In this document: piece after piece, positions 24,391-61,504 of the stretch
Position numbering within the stretch: the first letter of the stretch is position 1
How the letters are laid out: each line of letters begins with the position of its first letter
From: an uncultured virus (IMG/VR IMGVR_UViG_3300033463_000102)
Taxonomy: Duplodnaviria > Heunggongvirae > Uroviricota > Caudoviricetes
Virus record (IMG/VR): IMGVR_UViG_3300033463_000102
Strand: one strand, 5' to 3'
Length of the DNA stretch: 64,000 nt
Made by a program: the position numbers and the translations under genes
Notes under the pieces: generated by a model
What the model was told of the DNA's origin: nothing
What the model saw: only the letters and a program-made list of their open reading frames with translations
Database searches by the model: none

Positions 24391-25128
24391 ATGAGCAATG
24401 AAACAACAAATCTCGGTCTTACCCTCGACGCTGAAACCCTCGCTGCTTTCGAAAGCGGTGAAAGCGTTTCCAAGTTCCTTCTTGAAGAAGGTGTCTACGA
24501 CGCTGTCGTGCGTGGCTATGTCATTAAGCCACATGTGTTCGAAGGCGATGACCACGGCCCGAAAATCCAGCTTATCTGGCAGTTGGCAGACGGAGAAGGC
24601 ATGGTTCACACCCTTCTCGGTAAGCGTTGGAAGATGTCGGCAGACGAACGTTCCGTGTTCCGCAAGGAAGTGTCCAAATGGTTCAACAAGACCGATTGGC
24701 CGACAATCGTGGACATCTTGAAGAAAGGTGGTATCCTCGTGGCTGATGCCGAAGGCGCCCACTTCGAAATCGACAAGTTCATCGGAAAGAAGGCCAAGCT
24801 TATGGTCAACCAGGTCACGTCAAAGAAGGGGAAGACCTTCAATGACATCGTCAGCATCTCTCCTGCGTCAAAGACTCCAAAGGCTGTTGCCAATGACGAT
24901 GTGCCAGCATGGATGCTCGAAGGCGCACTCGACTATAAACTTGGCGAAGGCATCGGCATCCGTGCCAAGGAAGAGGGCGAAGCATCTGCCGAACAGCCGA
25001 AGGCAAACACTGCATCTAATGCTGCTCCCCCTGCATTGCCGAAGGGTTCCCCTGCCAAGAAGCAGTTGATGGAACAGGCCGCAGAAGCAAATGCCACTGG
25101 CTTTGCCGATGACGACTTGCCGTTCTGA
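24391..25128 (+). CDS. ssb: Single-stranded DNA-binding protein (probable)
   Basis: OB-fold-like N-terminus, flexible linker, acidic DDDLPF tail; homolog 57440-58165. Confidence 0.75.
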   Translation: MSNETTNLGLTLDAETLAAFESGESVSKFLLEEGVYDAVVRGYVIKPHVFEGDDHGPKIQLIWQLADGEGMVHTLLGKRWKMSADERSVFRKEVSKWFNKTDWPTIVDILKKGGILVADAEGAHFEIDKFIGKKAKLMVNQVTSKKGKTFNDIVSISPASKTPKAVANDDVPAWMLEGALDYKLGEGIGIRAKEEGEASAEQPKANTASNAAPPALPKGSPAKKQLMEQAAEANATGFADDDLPF

Positions 25129-25144
25129 TATACCTAATTAAATA

Positions 25145-25204
25145 CTCGACCGTGCCGACCGAGGATAAATAGACGGCACAGTTGTTATTCATGTTATCCT
25201 ACCT
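25145..25204 (+). ncRNA. H-type pseudoknot plus single-stranded anti-RBS tail
   Basis: P1 CTCG/CGAG, P2 GTGCCG/CGGCAC; covarying homolog at 57235-57295. Confidence 0.75.
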
Positions 25205-25299
25205 AGGGCCTAGTTTGGGCTTGGCTTCGGCGGGGGACTCTATTGGGACCGAAAGGCTTCATAAGGGTATTTTGCTGGGGCGAGTTCAGGCTGGGTCTT
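25205..25299 (+). ncRNA. Long G-U-rich hairpin capped by a GAAA tetraloop
   Basis: AGGGCCTAGTTTGGGCTTG pairs with CGAGTTCAGGCTGGGTCTT; stem extends inward. Confidence 0.7.
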
Positions 25300-25352
25300 G
25301 ATGGGGGCGGTGGTTTTTTCTAGGCTATCATTTACTCCGCCACCCCCTTCAA

Positions 25353-25503
25353 GGCTCAGTTAGCTCAGCTGGTAGAGCACGTTACGTTCCCCGTTCGCCT
25401 TTTTCTCCTAGCTCCCAAATTCTACATGGGATATGGTTGCGATAGAATGGGTTACTTTGGCTTGATAATCCCGATGTCGTGGGTTCGATTCCCACACTGG
25501 GCC
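25353..25503 (+). ncRNA. tRNA-like RNA with a 77-nt structured insertion in the anticodon arm (residual GAT loop)
   Basis: 8-bp acceptor GGCTCAGT/ACTGGGCC, D arm GCTC-AGCTGGTA-GAGC, T arm GTGGG-TTCGATT-CCCAC; homolog at 57301-57430. Confidence 0.85.
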
Positions 25504-26162: not shown

Positions 26163-27026
26163 ATGGCACAGAAAATTGTAAGTCCGAAAACGCCTGGAAA
26201 AAGGTATGTGAACTATCTTTTTTCCAGAACATTCCCAGTATGGAAACAGTATAAGATAGATGCACCTGTAATAAAACAGGTGCCACCAAACAGCGCTTGG
26301 ATTATTCATTGGTGGCGCAATACAGAAGAACTAAGCGAGATGGACAAGTATCACCTTGACGTTCTTGTTAGAGCAAAGTCTATGTTTAAGAAAGTCATCG
26401 TGTTTTATTCCAGCATGTATCCACCACCAAAGGAACTGGCTGGCTGCTATATAGTCAGAATTGCTAATGACGTTTCTCGGGGAGAGAACAATAGCTTCAT
26501 AGAAACATTGGCACAATGCCTTCTCGGAAATTGTGACTATGTGTTGAGAACCCATTTTAAGCTGAAAAAGAACTATGATGAAGGCAGAAAAAAGAATGTC
26601 CGTTTTTGGTGCAAGCTCATGTACGATGTATGCTTCGACGTAAGCGGCTTTGATACATCCACATACGGAGCAATAGACTGTCATGACCGTCGCTGGCTTG
26701 ACCCTTACCTGGCTGCGCTTCCTGGAAAATGGCATGACCTTGTTGATTCCACTTACCAGAATCACTATGCTGGCTCATTCATTTGGTATAACTGTAAGCG
26801 CTTCCGTGAATGGGCATCTGCCAACAATGTAACACTTGATGACATAAAGCAGCTCAATGGCGACGAAGTCCAGGGAAAACCTTGGCTATGCGAAGTCTTG
26901 ATTACGGCCATCTTCAAAGAAATAAATGCAAAGTATCACATCGACTTCTCACCATATGTAATCTTTGATTACTTTATACTAAATGGGCGAGATTTCAATT
27001 CCTTAGTCAATGGAGTCAAAAAATGA
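26163..27026 (+). CDS. Putative glycosyltransferase-like protein
   Basis: YVLRTHFK and HYAGSFIWYNC motifs; homolog at 63292-64000 lies in B's GT cluster; late motif variant GAGTATTTTTA at 26138. Confidence 0.5.
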   Translation: MAQKIVSPKTPGKRYVNYLFSRTFPVWKQYKIDAPVIKQVPPNSAWIIHWWRNTEELSEMDKYHLDVLVRAKSMFKKVIVFYSSMYPPPKELAGCYIVRIANDVSRGENNSFIETLAQCLLGNCDYVLRTHFKLKKNYDEGRKKNVRFWCKLMYDVCFDVSGFDTSTYGAIDCHDRRWLDPYLAALPGKWHDLVDSTYQNHYAGSFIWYNCKRFREWASANNVTLDDIKQLNGDEVQGKPWLCEVLITAIFKEINAKYHIDFSPYVIFDYFILNGRDFNSLVNGVKK

Positions 27027-27598
27027 ATATGATTTGTTCAACGCTTAGCGGAATGATGGCAATAAAACACCCAACAAAGGGCGTACTCGTTCGTGAAGAC
27101 GGTATGGTGTTTAACAGAGTAGGAAGAAGTAATAGGTATGCATGGACCAAAGGGTGCAAAGATAAGGACGGATACCCAATAGTCAGAATAAATTATAAAC
27201 GTACGCTAGTTCACCGTCTCGTAGCAGAGACGTTTATTCCTAATACCAACAGCAAACCCACTGTAGACCACATAAATCGGATAAGGGATGATAACAGAGT
27301 TCAGAACCTACGCTGGGCAACATACAAAGAACAGGCCGACAACACTATAAGAGTTATTAATAAAGAAGATTATGGTGTCCGTTCGTGTGAAAATAAGAGT
27401 GAATATTCTAGGAATTATCATCAAGCTAACAGAATAGAACACATTGCTAGAATGAGTGAATACAATAAAGAAAACAAAGACAAGATACTTGCGTATCACA
27501 GAAAATATTATGCAGAACACAAAGATAAGATAATTGCTTATCAAAGAAAATATCGTTCTGAACATAAAGAGAAGGAAAAAGAAAATGATGTTAATTAG
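27023..27598 (+). CDS. HNH homing endonuclease
   Basis: VHRLVAETFIPN..VDHINRIRDDNRVQNLRW. Confidence 0.9.
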   Translation: MNMICSTLSGMMAIKHPTKGVLVREDGMVFNRVGRSNRYAWTKGCKDKDGYPIVRINYKRTLVHRLVAETFIPNTNSKPTVDHINRIRDDNRVQNLRWATYKEQADNTIRVINKEDYGVRSCENKSEYSRNYHQANRIEHIARMSEYNKENKDKILAYHRKYYAEHKDKIIAYQRKYRSEHKEKEKENDVN

Positions 27599-28476: not shown

Positions 28477-28807
28477 GAAAAGACAACAAAGCAAGGCCCA
28501 ATCGATGAAGACCAAGTTTCGCCGCTCAGCCAAGTGGACGAAATTCAGGCGCCATGTGAAGTCCACGCAAAAAACAGACCCCATTACTGGAAGTCCGTTG
28601 GCACCTACGTGTTCTGTTCATCACCTTGACATGCGGGAGGAGAATTATGAAGACCTTTCTGATGAAACTCACTTCGTGGCTCTTAACTCTCAAAGTCACG
28701 AAACTATTCATTTTTTATGGCAGTCTCATGGAGGCTGGCGCAGTGCAGTGCTTTCTCTTATTCGAATTCTTAAAGCAATGGAGCGAATCAATTCTTCTGT
28801 AGCATAG
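28466..28807 (+). CDS. HNH-type nuclease (packaging-associated style)
   Basis: KWTKFR..DPITG..VHH..FVALN..SH..IH. Confidence 0.65.
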   Translation: MKFKKRQQSKAQSMKTKFRRSAKWTKFRRHVKSTQKTDPITGSPLAPTCSVHHLDMREENYEDLSDETHFVALNSQSHETIHFLWQSHGGWRSAVLSLIRILKAMERINSSVA

Positions 28808-29519
28808 TGGCCACTTCGACACCGAATATTTCCTCGGCTGACATCCCCGCCTTGATTAGCTCACTTACTGTTTTCAGATTGGGCTCGGTGTACCCGATGC
28901 ACCAGTTGAATACAGTGGCGTTCACGGTTCCAATCTTCTGGGCCAGGCGTCTCTGTGATAGCCCAGCACGCTTCATGAATGCGTTGATGCCCGTCTTGAA
29001 CACATCGTCATCCTTCTGTAACGCAGCTTGGTTCATGGCGAGTTCATTGGCGAATTCCTTTTCGAACCTTTTCTGTTCTGACTTCGTCATGTTCCTGTCA
29101 ACATCGAACGTGGTAAGCTTACGTTTCTCCTTGAACCAGTCCACGAACATGTCACGCATGTCGTAGCGCATGGCATCTTCAAGAGTCATGTCAGTTTCGT
29201 CCATGTACCTAAGGCCGCCAAGTTCGTAATACTTGTCGAAAAAGACGGGGCACTCCTCTACCCTCGGGTATGTGAAGCAATGGCAGTGATAGCAATTCCA
29301 CTCTATCGTATGTGCCTCTTCCAGTGCCTGCTTTCTCACTGCCATGTCACGGTCTTCCTGCAAGAGAACCTTTTCTGCAGCAGCCTTTATTTCTTCGTCG
29401 AACGGGACAAGCCTGTTGTCGCCGTAGTCGTCCATTGCCTTTTCCAGGCTCTTCTTGAAAGCCTTGACGAGCGCTACCAGCGCCTTGTCGTAGCACACTT
29501 CGGTAAAAAACACTTTCAT
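28788..29519 (-). CDS. Protein with C-terminal XRE-family HTH
   Basis: GLSQRRLAQKIG..TVFNW..EP..LIKAGMSAEEIFG; similar to 61112-61504 and 61507-61707. Confidence 0.8.
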   Translation of the reverse strand: MKVFFTEVCYDKALVALVKAFKKSLEKAMDDYGDNRLVPFDEEIKAAAEKVLLQEDRDMAVRKQALEEAHTIEWNCYHCHCFTYPRVEECPVFFDKYYELGGLRYMDETDMTLEDAMRYDMRDMFVDWFKEKRKLTTFDVDRNMTKSEQKRFEKEFANELAMNQAALQKDDDVFKTGINAFMKRAGLSQRRLAQKIGTVNATVFNWCIGYTEPNLKTVSELIKAGMSAEEIFGVEVATMLQKN

Positions 29520-31937: not shown

Positions 31938-33581
31938 CTATGGATTTATCGAAGTGAGTACATATTTTTCATCGATGTAGTAATTATCCCCATCCGTCCA
32001 TACTTGGTCAGGTGTAAAGTCAATACCGATATTTATTGGATACCATGTAGAACCAAGAACGAATTGACCAGTTGGGTTAAGAAGAGTTGTTCCTAGATAA
32101 TATGTATTGCCTTCATAATTCCATACTAGATATCCACGTAAATCTGGAACTCCTCCCCATTCCTTCTCTGACCAATTCATAGTAGTTAGGTCAAGTGAAA
32201 GTTGTGTATTGTTTGAGGGGTCCGAGTAGTAAACATGGGTTCCATCGTTCCATATAAACCTACCTTCGAAGGCCTCATCAGGTGGCGGGAACCCAGTCAT
32301 TGGCCTTTCTGTCCATGTAGACGTACTTGGGTCTAGGACATAATCACCATAGCATATATTAGTAGGGTCTCTCCATAGATTATGTTTGTATATATGATAG
32401 TCTGAAGGCAAGCCATACCATGTTTTTGCCCTCCATTGGGATGCACTCTTATCGAACACATACTGCTTCGCACTCGTACCGTAAGACCAATACACATTTG
32501 TCCCTTCATACCATACATTGTGACCACTAAGCTGTGTTCCGTTAAATGTCTTCCTGAACCATGTAGACGTGCTTTTGTCTAGGACAAGATGTACATATTC
32601 CATTGCAGATATTTCTGCAGAATAGTACACGTGTTCGCCGTCTGTCCATACGTCATCGCCATGGAGTACATCCATGCCGTTCCAGTATTTTACGTCCCAT
32701 GAAAGGGAATTATTCGGATTGAATTCATACTGTTCGTATGCATAGGAATAGTAACACTTCGTGCCGTCACTCCATACGTTACGTCCGTCTATCCTGGATG
32801 CACCAGAACCATGGAACGTGACCGATGTCCATCCAGTATGGCTGCTATTTAGCTTGTATGAATGGTTATAATAATAGTCATCACCACATTTCCATATATT
32901 CTTTGCCGACGGGTTTATACCTCCCCAGCTCTTTGTAACCCACGTAGATGTACTCTTGTTAAGAACATACTGATAGTTGTTCTCTGAATAGAATATATCG
33001 GTCCCGTCAGTCCACACGTAGTCACCCATAATAGATGAAAATCCAGACCATGTCTTTGTACTCCATGTTGATGTAGCTTTGTCTAGCACGTATTGCTGTG
33101 CTCCAAGTGAGAAGTAAACATTGTCTCCGTCAGACCATATAAACTTAGCAGATAGCGTCAGTTGAGGTATACCATACCACTGTTTAGTATACCATGTCGA
33201 TGTTGCCTTGTCCAAGACAAGCTGGTTTCCGTTTACACCATCTGACATATAAAAGTTCTCACCGTCAGTCCATATAGAACTACCGACAGGTTGATTTATT
33301 CGGCCAGTTGAAGGATTTTCGTTATATACAGTCCACTCCTTGTCTATCCAAGTATTAGTGGAAAGGTCTAATACTTTCTGCCTATCGACTCCTGGATAGG
33401 TCCCAATACCTGAATAGTAAATATGTTCTCCGTCACTCCATATAGCGGACTTATTAATAAAGGCAAGCCCACGCCATGTCTTGTTTTGCACGGAAAATGG
33501 TATAGTGAAATTGTACACTCCCATAAGTTTTTGGTTATAGGAGAGGGCAATACTTCTGTTGTTTCCAATTACACAGTCCAT
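31938..33581 (-). CDS. Trp-rich repeat protein, probable beta-propeller receptor-binding protein
   Basis: About 12 repeats of [IV]WxDGxxxYYS...QYVLDKxTSTWxxKxWxG. Confidence 0.7.
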   Translation of the reverse strand: MDCVIGNNRSIALSYNQKLMGVYNFTIPFSVQNKTWRGLAFINKSAIWSDGEHIYYSGIGTYPGVDRQKVLDLSTNTWIDKEWTVYNENPSTGRINQPVGSSIWTDGENFYMSDGVNGNQLVLDKATSTWYTKQWYGIPQLTLSAKFIWSDGDNVYFSLGAQQYVLDKATSTWSTKTWSGFSSIMGDYVWTDGTDIFYSENNYQYVLNKSTSTWVTKSWGGINPSAKNIWKCGDDYYYNHSYKLNSSHTGWTSVTFHGSGASRIDGRNVWSDGTKCYYSYAYEQYEFNPNNSLSWDVKYWNGMDVLHGDDVWTDGEHVYYSAEISAMEYVHLVLDKSTSTWFRKTFNGTQLSGHNVWYEGTNVYWSYGTSAKQYVFDKSASQWRAKTWYGLPSDYHIYKHNLWRDPTNICYGDYVLDPSTSTWTERPMTGFPPPDEAFEGRFIWNDGTHVYYSDPSNNTQLSLDLTTMNWSEKEWGGVPDLRGYLVWNYEGNTYYLGTTLLNPTGQFVLGSTWYPINIGIDFTPDQVWTDGDNYYIDEKYVLTSINP

Positions 33582-57024: not shown

Positions 57025-57056
57025 GGAAAGAAAGCCCACGGGTTCCCCCGTGGGCC
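57025..57056 (-). terminator. Intrinsic terminator closing B's ncRNA cluster
   Basis: GCCCACGGG-GGAA-CCCGTGGGC-TTTCTTT. Confidence 0.75.
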
Positions 57057-57087
57057 CTTGATGAGTTAGCTTGACTTTTTAGAGTAA

Positions 57088-57230
57088 CAACCCGCATGGG
57101 CCTAGTTTATCCTTTTTTTCCTTCCATGCAAGTTGTTGACCCTAGTGGACAGATGGGTGAAACTGATAGCACACATTTGTTGAAGAAAACCCCATCTGCC
57201 CGCTAGGGCCCAGCCCGAAGGCTGAACCCA
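57088..57230 (-). ncRNA. Three tandem hairpins (UUCG hairpin, GCTATCA-loop hairpin, purine/GGA-loop hairpin)
   Basis: GGGTTCAGCC-TTCG-GGCTGGGCCC; GGGCAGATGGG/CCCATCTGTCC; CAACTTGCATGG/CCATGCGGGTTG. Confidence 0.65.
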
Positions 57231-57234
57231 CAAC

Positions 57235-57295
57235 AGGTAGGTTAACATGAACAATAAGTAGCCTGTCTATTTTAAGCCAGTCAGGCAAGTTGGCT
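57235..57295 (-). ncRNA. H-type pseudoknot plus anti-RBS tail
   Basis: P1 AGCCA/TGGCT, P2 GCCTG/CAGGC, loop AAATAGA shared with A. Confidence 0.75.
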
Positions 57296-57300
57296 GTTAG

Positions 57301-57430
57301 GTGTGATGGCAGGGTTCGAACCTACAACATCGGGATTACAAATCCTAAGTAACCCGCCCTGTCGCAACCATTTCAGGAGAAAAGGCGGACGGGTAACATT
57401 CCGTGCTCTACCAGTTGAGCTACATCACAC
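57301..57430 (-). ncRNA. tRNA-like RNA with a 56-nt structured insertion in the anticodon arm (residual TGT loop)
   Basis: 8-bp acceptor GTGTGATG/CATCACAC, D arm GCTC-AACTGGTA-GAGC, T arm GTAGG-TTCGAAC-CCTGC. Confidence 0.85.
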
Positions 57431-57439
57431 TTTTAATAA

Positions 57440-58165
57440 CTAGAACGGGAGGTCCGAGTCTTCGAAGCTAGTAGCACTCGTTGCTGCAGCCTGTTCCATC
57501 AATTGCTTCTTGGCAGTGGAGCCCTTCGGCAATGCCGGGGGAGCAGTCTTTGCCTTCTGCTGTTCTTCGGCAGGTTCGGAAGACTCTTCCTTTGCACGGA
57601 TGCCGATGCCATCAGCCAACTTATAGTCAAGGGCTTCTGAAAGCATCCATTCAGGAATATCGTCGATACCGACTTCCTTTGCAGTCTTTGAAGCAGGAGA
57701 GATGCTTACGATGTCATTGAAGGTCTTTCCTTTCTTGGAAGTGACCTGATTGACCATAAGGCGACCCTTCTTGCCGATGAACTTGCTGACATCGAAATGG
57801 GCACCGTTTTCGTCAGTGACGAGAAGTCCGCCCTTTTTCAGGATATCAACGATGGTCGGCCAATCCGTCTTGTTGAACCACTTGGAAATTTCCTTGCGGA
57901 ACACCGAGCGTTCATCAGCACAAATCTTCCAGCGCTTGCCGAGAAGACTATGCACGAGGCCTTCGCTGTCTGCGAGCTGCCAAATGAGCTGGATTTTCGG
58001 GCCATGGTCATCGCCTTCGAACACATGGGGCTTGATGACATAGCCACGGACGACTGCATCATAGACTCCTTCTTCGAGCAGGAACTTGGATGTGGTTTCC
58101 CCGCTTTCGAATGCTGCGAGTTCTTCTTCATTGAGGTCTAGTCCGAGATTGATTTCGTTACTCAT
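57440..58165 (-). CDS. ssb: Single-stranded DNA-binding protein (probable)
   Basis: Close homolog of 24391-25128; DSDLPF tail. Confidence 0.75.
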   Translation of the reverse strand: MSNEINLGLDLNEEELAAFESGETTSKFLLEEGVYDAVVRGYVIKPHVFEGDDHGPKIQLIWQLADSEGLVHSLLGKRWKICADERSVFRKEISKWFNKTDWPTIVDILKKGGLLVTDENGAHFDVSKFIGKKGRLMVNQVTSKKGKTFNDIVSISPASKTAKEVGIDDIPEWMLSEALDYKLADGIGIRAKEESSEPAEEQQKAKTAPPALPKGSTAKKQLMEQAAATSATSFEDSDLPF

Positions 58166-60653: not shown

Positions 60654-60666
60654 TTCTACGTACCTT

Positions 60667-60776
60667 AAAAATAAAACCCGTGTCGTCCTTGTTTAAAGTT
60701 AGCAGCTTTGGGCACGGACGACACGGGTCTACGGTAGTAGAAAACTCTTTATGCCCAGGTGCTGCTAGAACCTTTA
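60667..60776 (-). promoter_or_regulatory. Attenuator-like leader (terminator whose loop pairs with the 5' segment)
   Basis: 13-bp stem 60716-60728/60676-60688 plus U tract; loop complements 60751-60776. Confidence 0.7.
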
Positions 60777-60934
60777 CATATTGTTTATACATCATTAATA
60801 TATATTTTTTTTCTGAGTTCTGCAAGGCCAAGTGAAAATATTTTTCTCTTTCCATAGCCAGTCAATGGGGTAGTCTTTAACTACCTCATCCCTTTTCTGT
60901 GTCCAAAAATTCTCTCCTTATATTCTTTAATTTA

Positions 60935-60997
60935 ACGTATATATATATCAAAATGCCGTTTTTGAGCGAATTTCGAGGTTTTGATATATATATACGT
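60935..60997. repeat. Perfect 19-bp inverted repeat with (TA)n core, candidate origin of B
   Basis: ACGTATATATATATCAAAA / TTTTGATATATATATACGT with a 25-nt spacer; outer imperfect arms. Confidence 0.75.
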
Positions 60998-61050
60998 ACT
61001 TTTAAAGAATATATAGGGGAATTTTTTTTCACCTTTTTTATAAAAGGTAC

Positions 61051-61079
61051 TTGACAAGTGTAAACACTTTTGATATATT
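61051..61079 (+). promoter_or_regulatory. Promoter TTGACA-17-TATATT with palindromic operator AAGTG-TAAA-CACTT
   Basis: Upstream of the tandem HTH genes. Confidence 0.7.
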
Positions 61080-61111
61080 TATGGCATCAACACAAACACA
61101 AGAGGTAAACA

Positions 61112-61504
61112 ATGAACAATAAGGAAAACACATCCATCACAGAACTCCCTTTCCAGACTGGTCTCAAGAAGTTCCTGAACCGCAAGGGTCTCACCCAGAA
61201 AGCACTGGCCGACAAGATTTACGTCTCGTCATGCACGGTATCACAGTGGACTCGTGGCAGCTATGACCCTAGCGTGACAGTCTCCCTGCTCATTCTGGAA
61301 GGCATGACGCTCGAAGAAATCTTCGGTGCGGACGTGATGGACAAGATTCTTGAAAACGAGAAGGAAAGCACCAACGCAATCCTTCGCCACATCAACGCAC
61401 AGTCCTCGCCCAAGAAGGAAGAACCCAAGAAGGAAACGAGGGCCGAGAAACAGAAAGCTGGCTTCATGAGCCGTCTGACCATGCTGTTCAGCGCAAAGAG
61501 GTAA
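61112..61504 (+). CDS. XRE-family HTH regulator
   Basis: GLTQKALADKI..TVSQW..G..P..GMTLEEIFG. Confidence 0.85.
   Translation: MNNKENTSITELPFQTGLKKFLNRKGLTQKALADKIYVSSCTVSQWTRGSYDPSVTVSLLILEGMTLEEIFGADVMDKILENEKESTNAILRHINAQSSPKKEEPKKETRAEKQKAGFMSRLTMLFSAKR

Follow-up and report, generated by a model that had tools for sequence, protein, structure and literature searches.

A covarying pseudoknot RNA with a tail complementary to a translation start, adjoining tRNA genes in related uncultured phages

Two look-alike stretches lie far apart within a window of 64,000 nucleotides (the whole stretch of phage DNA that was analysed). They raise the question of whether such sites specify a folded RNA, from which strand it would be read, and what a phage would gain from a tail that spells the complement of a translation start. 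The initial annotation had proposed an H-type pseudoknot at both sites, and the letters at site A and at site B (minus strand, 57295-57261) are exactly as written there. The 15-mer common to both tails occurs three times in the window at up to two mismatches, where 0.32 occurrences are expected and none of 100 shuffles gives three; the third occurrence, at 32251, has two mismatches and lacks a pseudoknot.

Two pseudoknots and their relatives

The elements and the genes that precede them are as follows.

25145..25179 (+): copy A H-type pseudoknot (site sequence; covariation of both helices over 10 variants)
25145-25148 with 25160-25163 (+): copy A helix S1
25149-25151 (+): copy A loop L1
25152-25157 with 25174-25179 (+): copy A helix S2
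25158-25159 (+): copy A AC linker
25164-25173 (+): copy A A-rich loop L3, 10 nt
57261..57295 (-): copy B H-type pseudoknot (site sequence; covariation)
24391..25128 (+): upstream gene of copy A; its 245-aa product ends in an acidic tip of the SSB type (sequence)
57440..58165 (-): upstream gene of copy B, homologue of 24391-25128 (sequence)

The window holds two related phage genomes head to head, A (~1-29.7 kb) and B (~29.7-64 kb). An IMG/VR record nearly identical to B has one and the same gene at its two ends, so B would be about 36 kb long and is probably complete. The gene orders of the two phages differ: in A the replication genes are preceded by the terminase gene and the structural genes are divergent, and in B the terminase gene comes shortly after the RNA. 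Both phages carry the element in a non-coding gap of ~430 nt that ends the replication genes (helicase, primase). Metagenome DNA from bovine gut covers the B stretch best, possibly from its own source samples.

The protein encoded upstream of the element matched no PHROG or Pfam family, and a search of species-genome proteins returned no relative. An Atlas match to DUF669 is a lead only, the AlphaFold model was unusable (pLDDT 38.6) and a PDB profile search gave only an irrelevant match. We take the protein to be SSB-like from its C-terminal motif, together with the DUF669 lead.

Relatives of the element were sought with this upstream protein. The search of IMG/VR gave three new variants (L123, L124, L125), and the same query against metagenome contigs gave five more (L132, L134, L135, L138, L139); the remaining matches were identical to B, L124 or L125, apart from one unrelated partial match (L141). 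All eight further variants sit beside relatives of the upstream gene and come from related uncultured phages. Thus 10 distinct variants were available from this small group of uncultured phages of the cattle gut, three in the gene order of A (A, L132, L139) and seven in that of B. Among GenBank phages nothing matched the 1,251-bp region. In IMG/VR, a search with the tail pattern found the element at 4 of 119 loci among the matches listed, all four identical to B and the others due to chance, and a search with the pattern of the P2 and P3 helices described below returned only the same six records, without new family members. A covariance model gave 10 matches at E < 1e-12 and nothing else credible in 148,466 bases, which corresponds to one copy per phage.

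Helix counts were made on a MAFFT alignment of all 10 variants. Standard pairs fill 93.6% of the S1 and S2 cells compared with 69.5% in shuffles, where cells count related sequences and not events (about three types of S1 and seven of S2) and where rows A and B, from which the structure was derived, are hence not independent tests. When the pairing partner was slid by one to three columns, 22-42% of cells paired. In S1 (columns 8-12 with 24-28), 92% of cells are paired and four of the five pairs have changed on both sides; in S2 (columns 16-21 with 38-43), the values are 95% and six of six. The compensatory change that the initial annotation had seen between A and B therefore extends over the 10 variants, with two-sided changes in 10 of 11 pairs against a shuffled mean of 6.1, and no shuffle out of 500 equalled the observed pairing or covariation score. 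The linker and loop are kept throughout: AC is invariant, AAAU and GA of L3 are invariant or nearly so, and the loops are better conserved than the stems. Both look-alike stretches are real, covarying RNA pseudoknots.

The topology is that of an H-type fold, since the 3′ strand of S2 pairs within the loop of S1 and the two helices cross. Over the alignment, L1 has 3-4 nt to cross an S2 of 5-6 bp, the junction has 2 nt, and L3 has 9-10 nt to cross an S1 of 4-5 bp. We take these lengths to be adequate to span the helices, so that S1 and S2 probably form simultaneously.

Read on the strand of the surrounding genes, four cells of the pseudoknot helices are G-U. On the opposite strand such cells would be A-C mismatches, and the RNA is therefore placed on the gene strand. 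These same G-U pairs, together with the compensatory changes, favour a folded single strand over a signal that acts at the level of DNA (a promoter, an origin or a packaging site). The position of the element between gene modules would suit a DNA signal, and to our eye the loop and tail loosely resemble a -35 and an extended -10, yet we regard this explanation as very unlikely. The promoter reading was examined on its own and rejected: by our count the spacing between the hexamers ranges from 15 to at least 20, the second hexamer lacks an A at its second position, and consensus scans find no promoter there.

A compact pseudoknot could also belong to a ToxI-like type III antitoxin or to a mimic of one, as the initial annotation had offered as an alternative. 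This suggestion did not hold up and we give it hardly any credence. Tandem Repeats Finder reports no rows at either copy, each phage has one copy, the neighbouring gene changes among the variants, and searches of PADLOC, Pfam and PHROGs give no family for the proteins encoded next to it.

A larger RNA in contact with a tRNA gene

Downstream of the pseudoknot and its tail, further structure leads up to the tRNA gene in A and to a terminator-like hairpin in B.

25205..25353 (+): copy A 3′ domain (minimum-free-energy fold; same layout in L132 and L139)
~25206-25298 (+): copy A long hairpin (fold)
~25297-25353 (+): copy A P3, flush with the first base of the tRNA gene (fold)
57027..57234 (-): copy B 3′ domain (sequence and fold; P2 and P3 covary)
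57229-57206 (-): copy B P2, with a UUCG loop
~57208-57140 (-): copy B P3 plus CTAG extension
~57138-57085 (-): copy B P4
57057-57034 (-): copy B G+C-rich hairpin, followed by a T run at 57033-57027 (read from sequence and fold)
25354..25503 (+): tRNA gene beside copy A, anticodon GAU by our reading, with a structured insertion of ~75 nt (sequence, alignment)
57301..57430 (-): tRNA gene beside copy B, anticodon UGU by our reading, with a 56-nt insertion in the anticodon stem (Rfam and alignment)

In the seven B-type variants, 98.2% of the P2 and P3 cells pair, 10 of 24 pairs have changed on both sides and none of 500 shuffles scores as high. By a count from the pair table, 35 of the 163 P2 and P3 cells are G-U, and five of the seven variants carry a UUCG loop on P2 when the gene strand is read. 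Because P2 and P3 covary, the pseudoknot is the 5′ domain of a larger gene-strand RNA, which we put at about 210 nt in the A type to about 280 nt in B; covariation was counted for the B type only, and the A-type 3′ domain rests on single-sequence folds. The P4 hairpin (57085-57138, minus strand) is found in only four of the seven B-type variants (B, L123, L134, L138). The self-complementary CTAG motif found on the flanks of P3 recurs a third time within its conserved loop, so that it may form a tertiary or alternative pairing.

At gathering score, the sole match in Rfam 15 was a tRNA and nothing was returned for the pseudoknot RNA; of two scans with E up to 10, one gave only noise over the pseudoknot (best 13.9 bits, E ≥ 5.4) and the other nothing over it. 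The structured RNA appears to be previously undescribed, in that it has neither an Rfam family nor a match in GenBank phages, the literature consulted being that on known comparison systems. A weak hint of expression comes from RNA-library contigs of relatives 85-99% alike (two runs of one study), which cover 57059-57351 and 57031-57247, that is, from the 3′ half of the tRNA to just before the last hairpin; their strand, ends and level are not readable and DNA carry-over is uncontrolled. One of these contigs stops on adapter sequence exactly at the 3′ end of the tRNA, 57301.

What lies 3′ of the RNA differs between variants. A G+C-rich hairpin and T run follow the RNA in B, L134, L123 and L138 and follow the tRNA in L132 and L139, although the last hairpin of copy B is absent from the list of a consensus terminator scan. 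In L124, L125 and L135 the ribosome site of the next gene comes directly after P3. This arrangement raises the alternative that the element is a cis-acting leader or riboswitch-like sensor, in which a ligand or factor would steer terminator read-through or translation of the next gene through alternative pairing of P2 and P3, with their flanking CTAG motifs. Such a leader would account for the terminator-like hairpin in four of the seven B-type variants and the ribosome site in the other three, for its place where the replication genes give way to those behind them, and, as read from the folds, for the bases closing P2 that can extend P3 instead. Known ligand-binding pseudoknots are likewise small, with conserved loops and an A-rich L3. 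However, the gene downstream of the element is inconsistent, with three unrelated families among the variants, and in the A type the tRNA gene and a terminator separate the RNA from the next gene. Moreover, no Rfam riboswitch family was matched even at E up to 10, and no promoter-like site precedes the element in B. Taken together, we consider a cis leader unlikely.

The most constant neighbour of the RNA is a tRNA gene, which it adjoins within 0-5 nt in all 10 variants. The A order is gene, pseudoknot RNA, tRNA, and the last base of P3 directly precedes position 1 of the tRNA. In the B order (gene, tRNA, pseudoknot RNA), the pseudoknot begins 3-5 nt past the discriminator (5 nt in copy B). 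That the contact is kept although the order is swapped suggests that tRNA trimming sets one end of the RNA.

These tRNA genes are themselves unusual. The tRNA of copy B matches the Rfam tRNA model with 42.7 bits and has 67 nt where the model has 11; the tRNA of copy A has no Rfam match at gathering score, and ARAGORN called a tRNA in none of the 10 variants. The cloverleaf is nevertheless borne out by the alignment, in which all seven acceptor pairs vary on both sides and the T arm covaries; the D arm does not vary. Nine variants have the anticodon GAU and one has UGU. The anticodon stem is not an uninterrupted helix of 5 bp, because in all 10 variants an insertion of ~50-87 nt splits its 5′ strand, by our reading between pairs 28 and 29, and the anticodon hairpin has 3 bp with a 7-nt loop. 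The insertion has a covarying 7-bp stem of its own and conserved loop motifs. It would be either an intron, unusually placed for a tRNA and of a kind new to bacteria and phages, or an additional arm that the mature tRNA retains.

Phage A also carries an HNH homing-endonuclease gene at 27023-27598 on the plus strand (PHROG 959, E 7.9e-23). Its position relative to the RNA-tRNA module differs between A and L139, where it comes just after the tRNA gene, which suggests that it is a mobile insertion near the module.

The tail and what it may pair with

The segment between the pseudoknot and the 3′ domain is the part of the RNA that resembles an inverted translation start.

25180..25204 (+): copy A tail, complement of SD (AGGTAG), 6 nt, ATG AAT AAC AAC (sequence; unpaired probability)
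57235..57260 (-): copy B tail, complement of SD, 6 nt, ATG AAC AAT AAG (sequence; unpaired probability)
61086..61504 (+): gene for an XRE-type HTH regulator of 130 aa with its start region, candidate target in phage B (Pfam HTH_3, tail match)

That the tail is antisense to a ribosome site and AUG, as first described for A and B, proved to be general: all 10 variants contain the complement of AGGWAG, 4-10 nt, ATG and AAY, and indels within the tail account for the change in spacing between the anti-SD and the anti-AUG. In nine of the 10 variants the tail is predicted to be more open than the remainder (mean unpaired probability 0.53 compared with 0.36; for copy A, 0.70 compared with 0.29 elsewhere in the RNA).

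The same letters could instead function on the opposite strand, where AGGWAG, 4-10 nt and ATGAAY would be a working ribosome site on an antisense transcript and the gene-strand RNA would be its cis-antisense partner. Retention of the SD, a workable spacing, ATG and AAY in 10 of 10 variants despite indels would be expected of such a site, and elsewhere in IMG/VR the 15-mer, among the matches listed and judged from its flanks, mostly resembles ordinary gene starts on the opposite strand. However, the open reading frames that begin at this ATG run for 58, 62, 8, 4, 10, 41, 33, 2, 17 and 34-36 codons, and beyond Met-Asn nothing is conserved except what the pseudoknot imposes. No promoter-like site was found on the opposite strand in either copy. 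The scatter in length and the lack of a promoter-like site exclude a conserved small protein, so that the genuine small open reading frame named at the outset as the finding that would overturn an RNA interpretation is not there. Furthermore, all the structure evidence is specific to the gene strand, and the element is oriented like the surrounding genes in 10 of 10 variants. A functional opposite strand therefore appears quite improbable.

We tentatively favour a reading in which the element is a processed phage small RNA whose pseudoknot caps the 5′ end and whose open tail masks a translation start, although we would not yet put it at even odds. According to this model, the RNA and its neighbouring tRNA gene would be the last part of the replication operon to be transcribed, from the gene strand, and the RNA would probably be freed by the enzymes that trim tRNAs, RNase P where the tRNA lies downstream and RNase Z where it lies upstream. 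The pseudoknot would cap the 5′ end of the RNA, and the next 25-33 nt, which are antisense to a Shine-Dalgarno element, a start codon and the codons just after it, would remain open in vivo. Paired to the start site of an mRNA, this open tail would then deny ribosomes access to it. The change in spacing from 4 to 10 nt within the tail speaks against the processed-RNA reading, as a true ribosome site on the opposite strand would tolerate it. The conserved loops also weigh against this reading, since they point to a bound ligand or protein and a simple 5′ cap has no need of them.

These loops are the main unexplained feature of the element, and they keep alive both the ligand-sensing leader considered above and a further alternative, in which the pseudoknot is an operator for a phage protein. 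Most simply this protein would be the upstream SSB-like one, landing on the pseudoknot and spreading along the U-rich tail, with the likeness to an inverted start being secondary. An operator would explain why AC, AAAU and GA stay (nearly) invariant while the stems vary and why the element is always in the same operon, downstream of a gene with an SSB-type tip; T4 gp32 offers a precedent, with a 5′ pseudoknot followed by unstructured A+U-rich RNA in the account given of it (PMC3014915). Against this, the element is located 3′ of the gene, with the tRNA gene intervening in the B type, and the gene-strand tail has no ribosome site to cover. The upstream protein matches no SSB family, and the complementarity to SD, AUG and AAY in 10 of 10 variants is left unexplained. 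We hold an operator to be unlikely.

A target was sought for the small RNA that we favour. The initial annotation had supposed that one target beginning AUG AAU AAU would fit both copies. Such a target suits A and B only, as the tails of the other variants diverge beyond wobble after AUG-AAY, and this divergence fits a target that coevolves with each phage better than a single host target. A search of species genomes was unproductive: the exact 23-mer pattern has no match in one genome each of 185,579 species, which leaves room for a partly complementary host target. Within the window, the 23-mer at up to three mismatches finds only the two elements themselves, the tail of A matches nothing above chance, and an ungapped scan gives best non-self scores of 33-34 compared with a shuffled-tail mean of 32.8. 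The start of the upstream gene was considered as a target and rejected, with a mean duplex energy of -14.13 kcal/mol for cognate and -15.14 kcal/mol for non-cognate pairs.

The leading candidate is found in phage B itself, and is proposed from sequence matching with less confidence than the mechanism. The gene at 61112-61504 encodes an XRE-type regulator (Pfam HTH_3, E 6.7e-08); its transcription and that of the operon containing the RNA diverge. When its start is aligned with the complement of the B tail, 23 of 27 columns agree, among them an uninterrupted run of 12 bases that begins at the ATG, and with a score of 32 it is the best non-self match in the window and likewise in G001, a near-identical record. 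The chance level of this match is about 1 in 30 (about the 97th percentile): the same score is reached by one of 38 real start regions used as queries and by at least one of 60 shuffled queries. The predicted duplex of -24.5 kcal/mol ranks second among 242 start-like windows (mean -11.95, s.d. 3.37), one other start-like window pairing better with the B tail at -25.3.

Comparison between phages lends this candidate little help. In the one other phage compared over the switch region (G003), the match of the divergent HTH start to that phage's own tail is not above background. Of 16 database relatives of the HTH protein, six start with M-N-T and ten with M-K, so that MNNK is the start of none. 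In IMG/VR the gene occurs only in B-like records, and phage A has no such HTH gene in the window, its genome being cut at the window's left end.

The surroundings of the HTH gene have features of their own. Between this gene and the replication operon of B, the interval 60660-61110 has the appearance of the phage's genetic switch: it contains inverted repeats that are long and AT-rich and, ahead of the HTH gene, a -35/-10 pair close to consensus that reads as a strong promoter. A second gene, 28788-29518 on the minus strand (~243 aa), shares 44% identity, in its C-terminal part, with the HTH domain encoded at 61112; it has a promoter-like site of its own and is located at the junction of the two genomes.

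A bolder form of the small-RNA model joins these elements. Here, tRNA-trimming enzymes of the host would excise the RNA from the replication operon, and the RNA would silence the phage's own XRE-type switch by covering the ribosome site and the first four codons, and the invariant loops would be a sensor or a protein dock that times exposure of the tail. We think this unlikely as it stands. If true, the lysis-lysogeny decision would be governed by a new kind of trans-acting riboregulator, one that is built together with an insertion-bearing tRNA.

Comparison with known systems

Understood phage regulatory RNAs are few and come from a handful of model phages. Among them, the closest in proposed action is c4 of phages P1 and P7, which the passages on it in PMC8546580 present as a phage-encoded trans-acting RNA that represses synthesis of the regulatory protein Ant; the title of a reference given there describes it as a processed 77-base RNA. 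RNase P is named as cutting non-tRNA precursors that include the precursor of the c4 antisense RNA (in the relevant part of PMC11143913). Like c4, the RNA described here is in an operon, touches a substrate of RNase P or RNase Z and has a tail antisense to a translation start. It differs in that a complete tRNA gene, distinct from the RNA, would supply the processing signal and in that the target is a candidate only. Rfam holds a C4 family, and scans at E up to 10 gave no match to it for the pseudoknot RNA; to our knowledge c4 has no H-type pseudoknot. The RNA is thus likened to c4 in its action and is not a member of the c4 family.

Three groups of pseudoknotted RNAs bear a structural likeness. 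The preQ1-I, SAM-II and guanidine-III aptamers are small H-type pseudoknots with an A-rich third loop and with loops more conserved than stems. The present pseudoknot shares their size (33-35 nt), two short helices, A-rich third loop and conserved loops; in contrast to them, it has no Rfam riboswitch match and no consistent next gene, and it is followed by an anti-SD and not by an SD. ToxI is likewise small and pseudoknotted and belongs to the arms race between phages and their hosts; it consists of 36-nt repeats in tandem, next to the gene for an endoribonuclease toxin. The order of RNA, terminator-like hairpin and gene for a ~146-aa protein in B and L134 recalls the layout of toxI, terminator and toxN, but neither tandem repeats nor a toxin gene of the ToxN, AbiQ or CptN type is present at these copies. 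In T4, gp32 binds a pseudoknot in its own leader and from there assembles along unstructured A+U-rich RNA until the ribosome site is covered, according to the description in PMC3014915. As far as that description goes, the two phage elements are alike in placing a pseudoknot beside an unstructured A/U-rich stretch in association with an SSB gene, which here is putative. They differ in that the T4 element is 5′ of the gene and its tail is the ribosome site itself, whereas here the element is 3′ of the gene and its tail is the complement.

Finally, tRNA end-processing can define an end of a non-coding RNA that is joined to a tRNA. The present RNA resembles such tRNA-precursor small RNAs in being directly joined to a tRNA, and departs from them in that its two subgroups have the tRNA on opposite sides of the RNA without loss of the contact, and in that the tRNA has an insertion. 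If the model is true, it would provide a testable example of a phage using tRNA processing to shut off translation of a chosen gene, which may be that of its own switch regulator. What the comparisons bring out is a compact RNA family with strong comparative support, in which a pseudoknot with conserved loops, an exposed anti-start and a fixed contact with a tRNA are combined in an unusual architecture.
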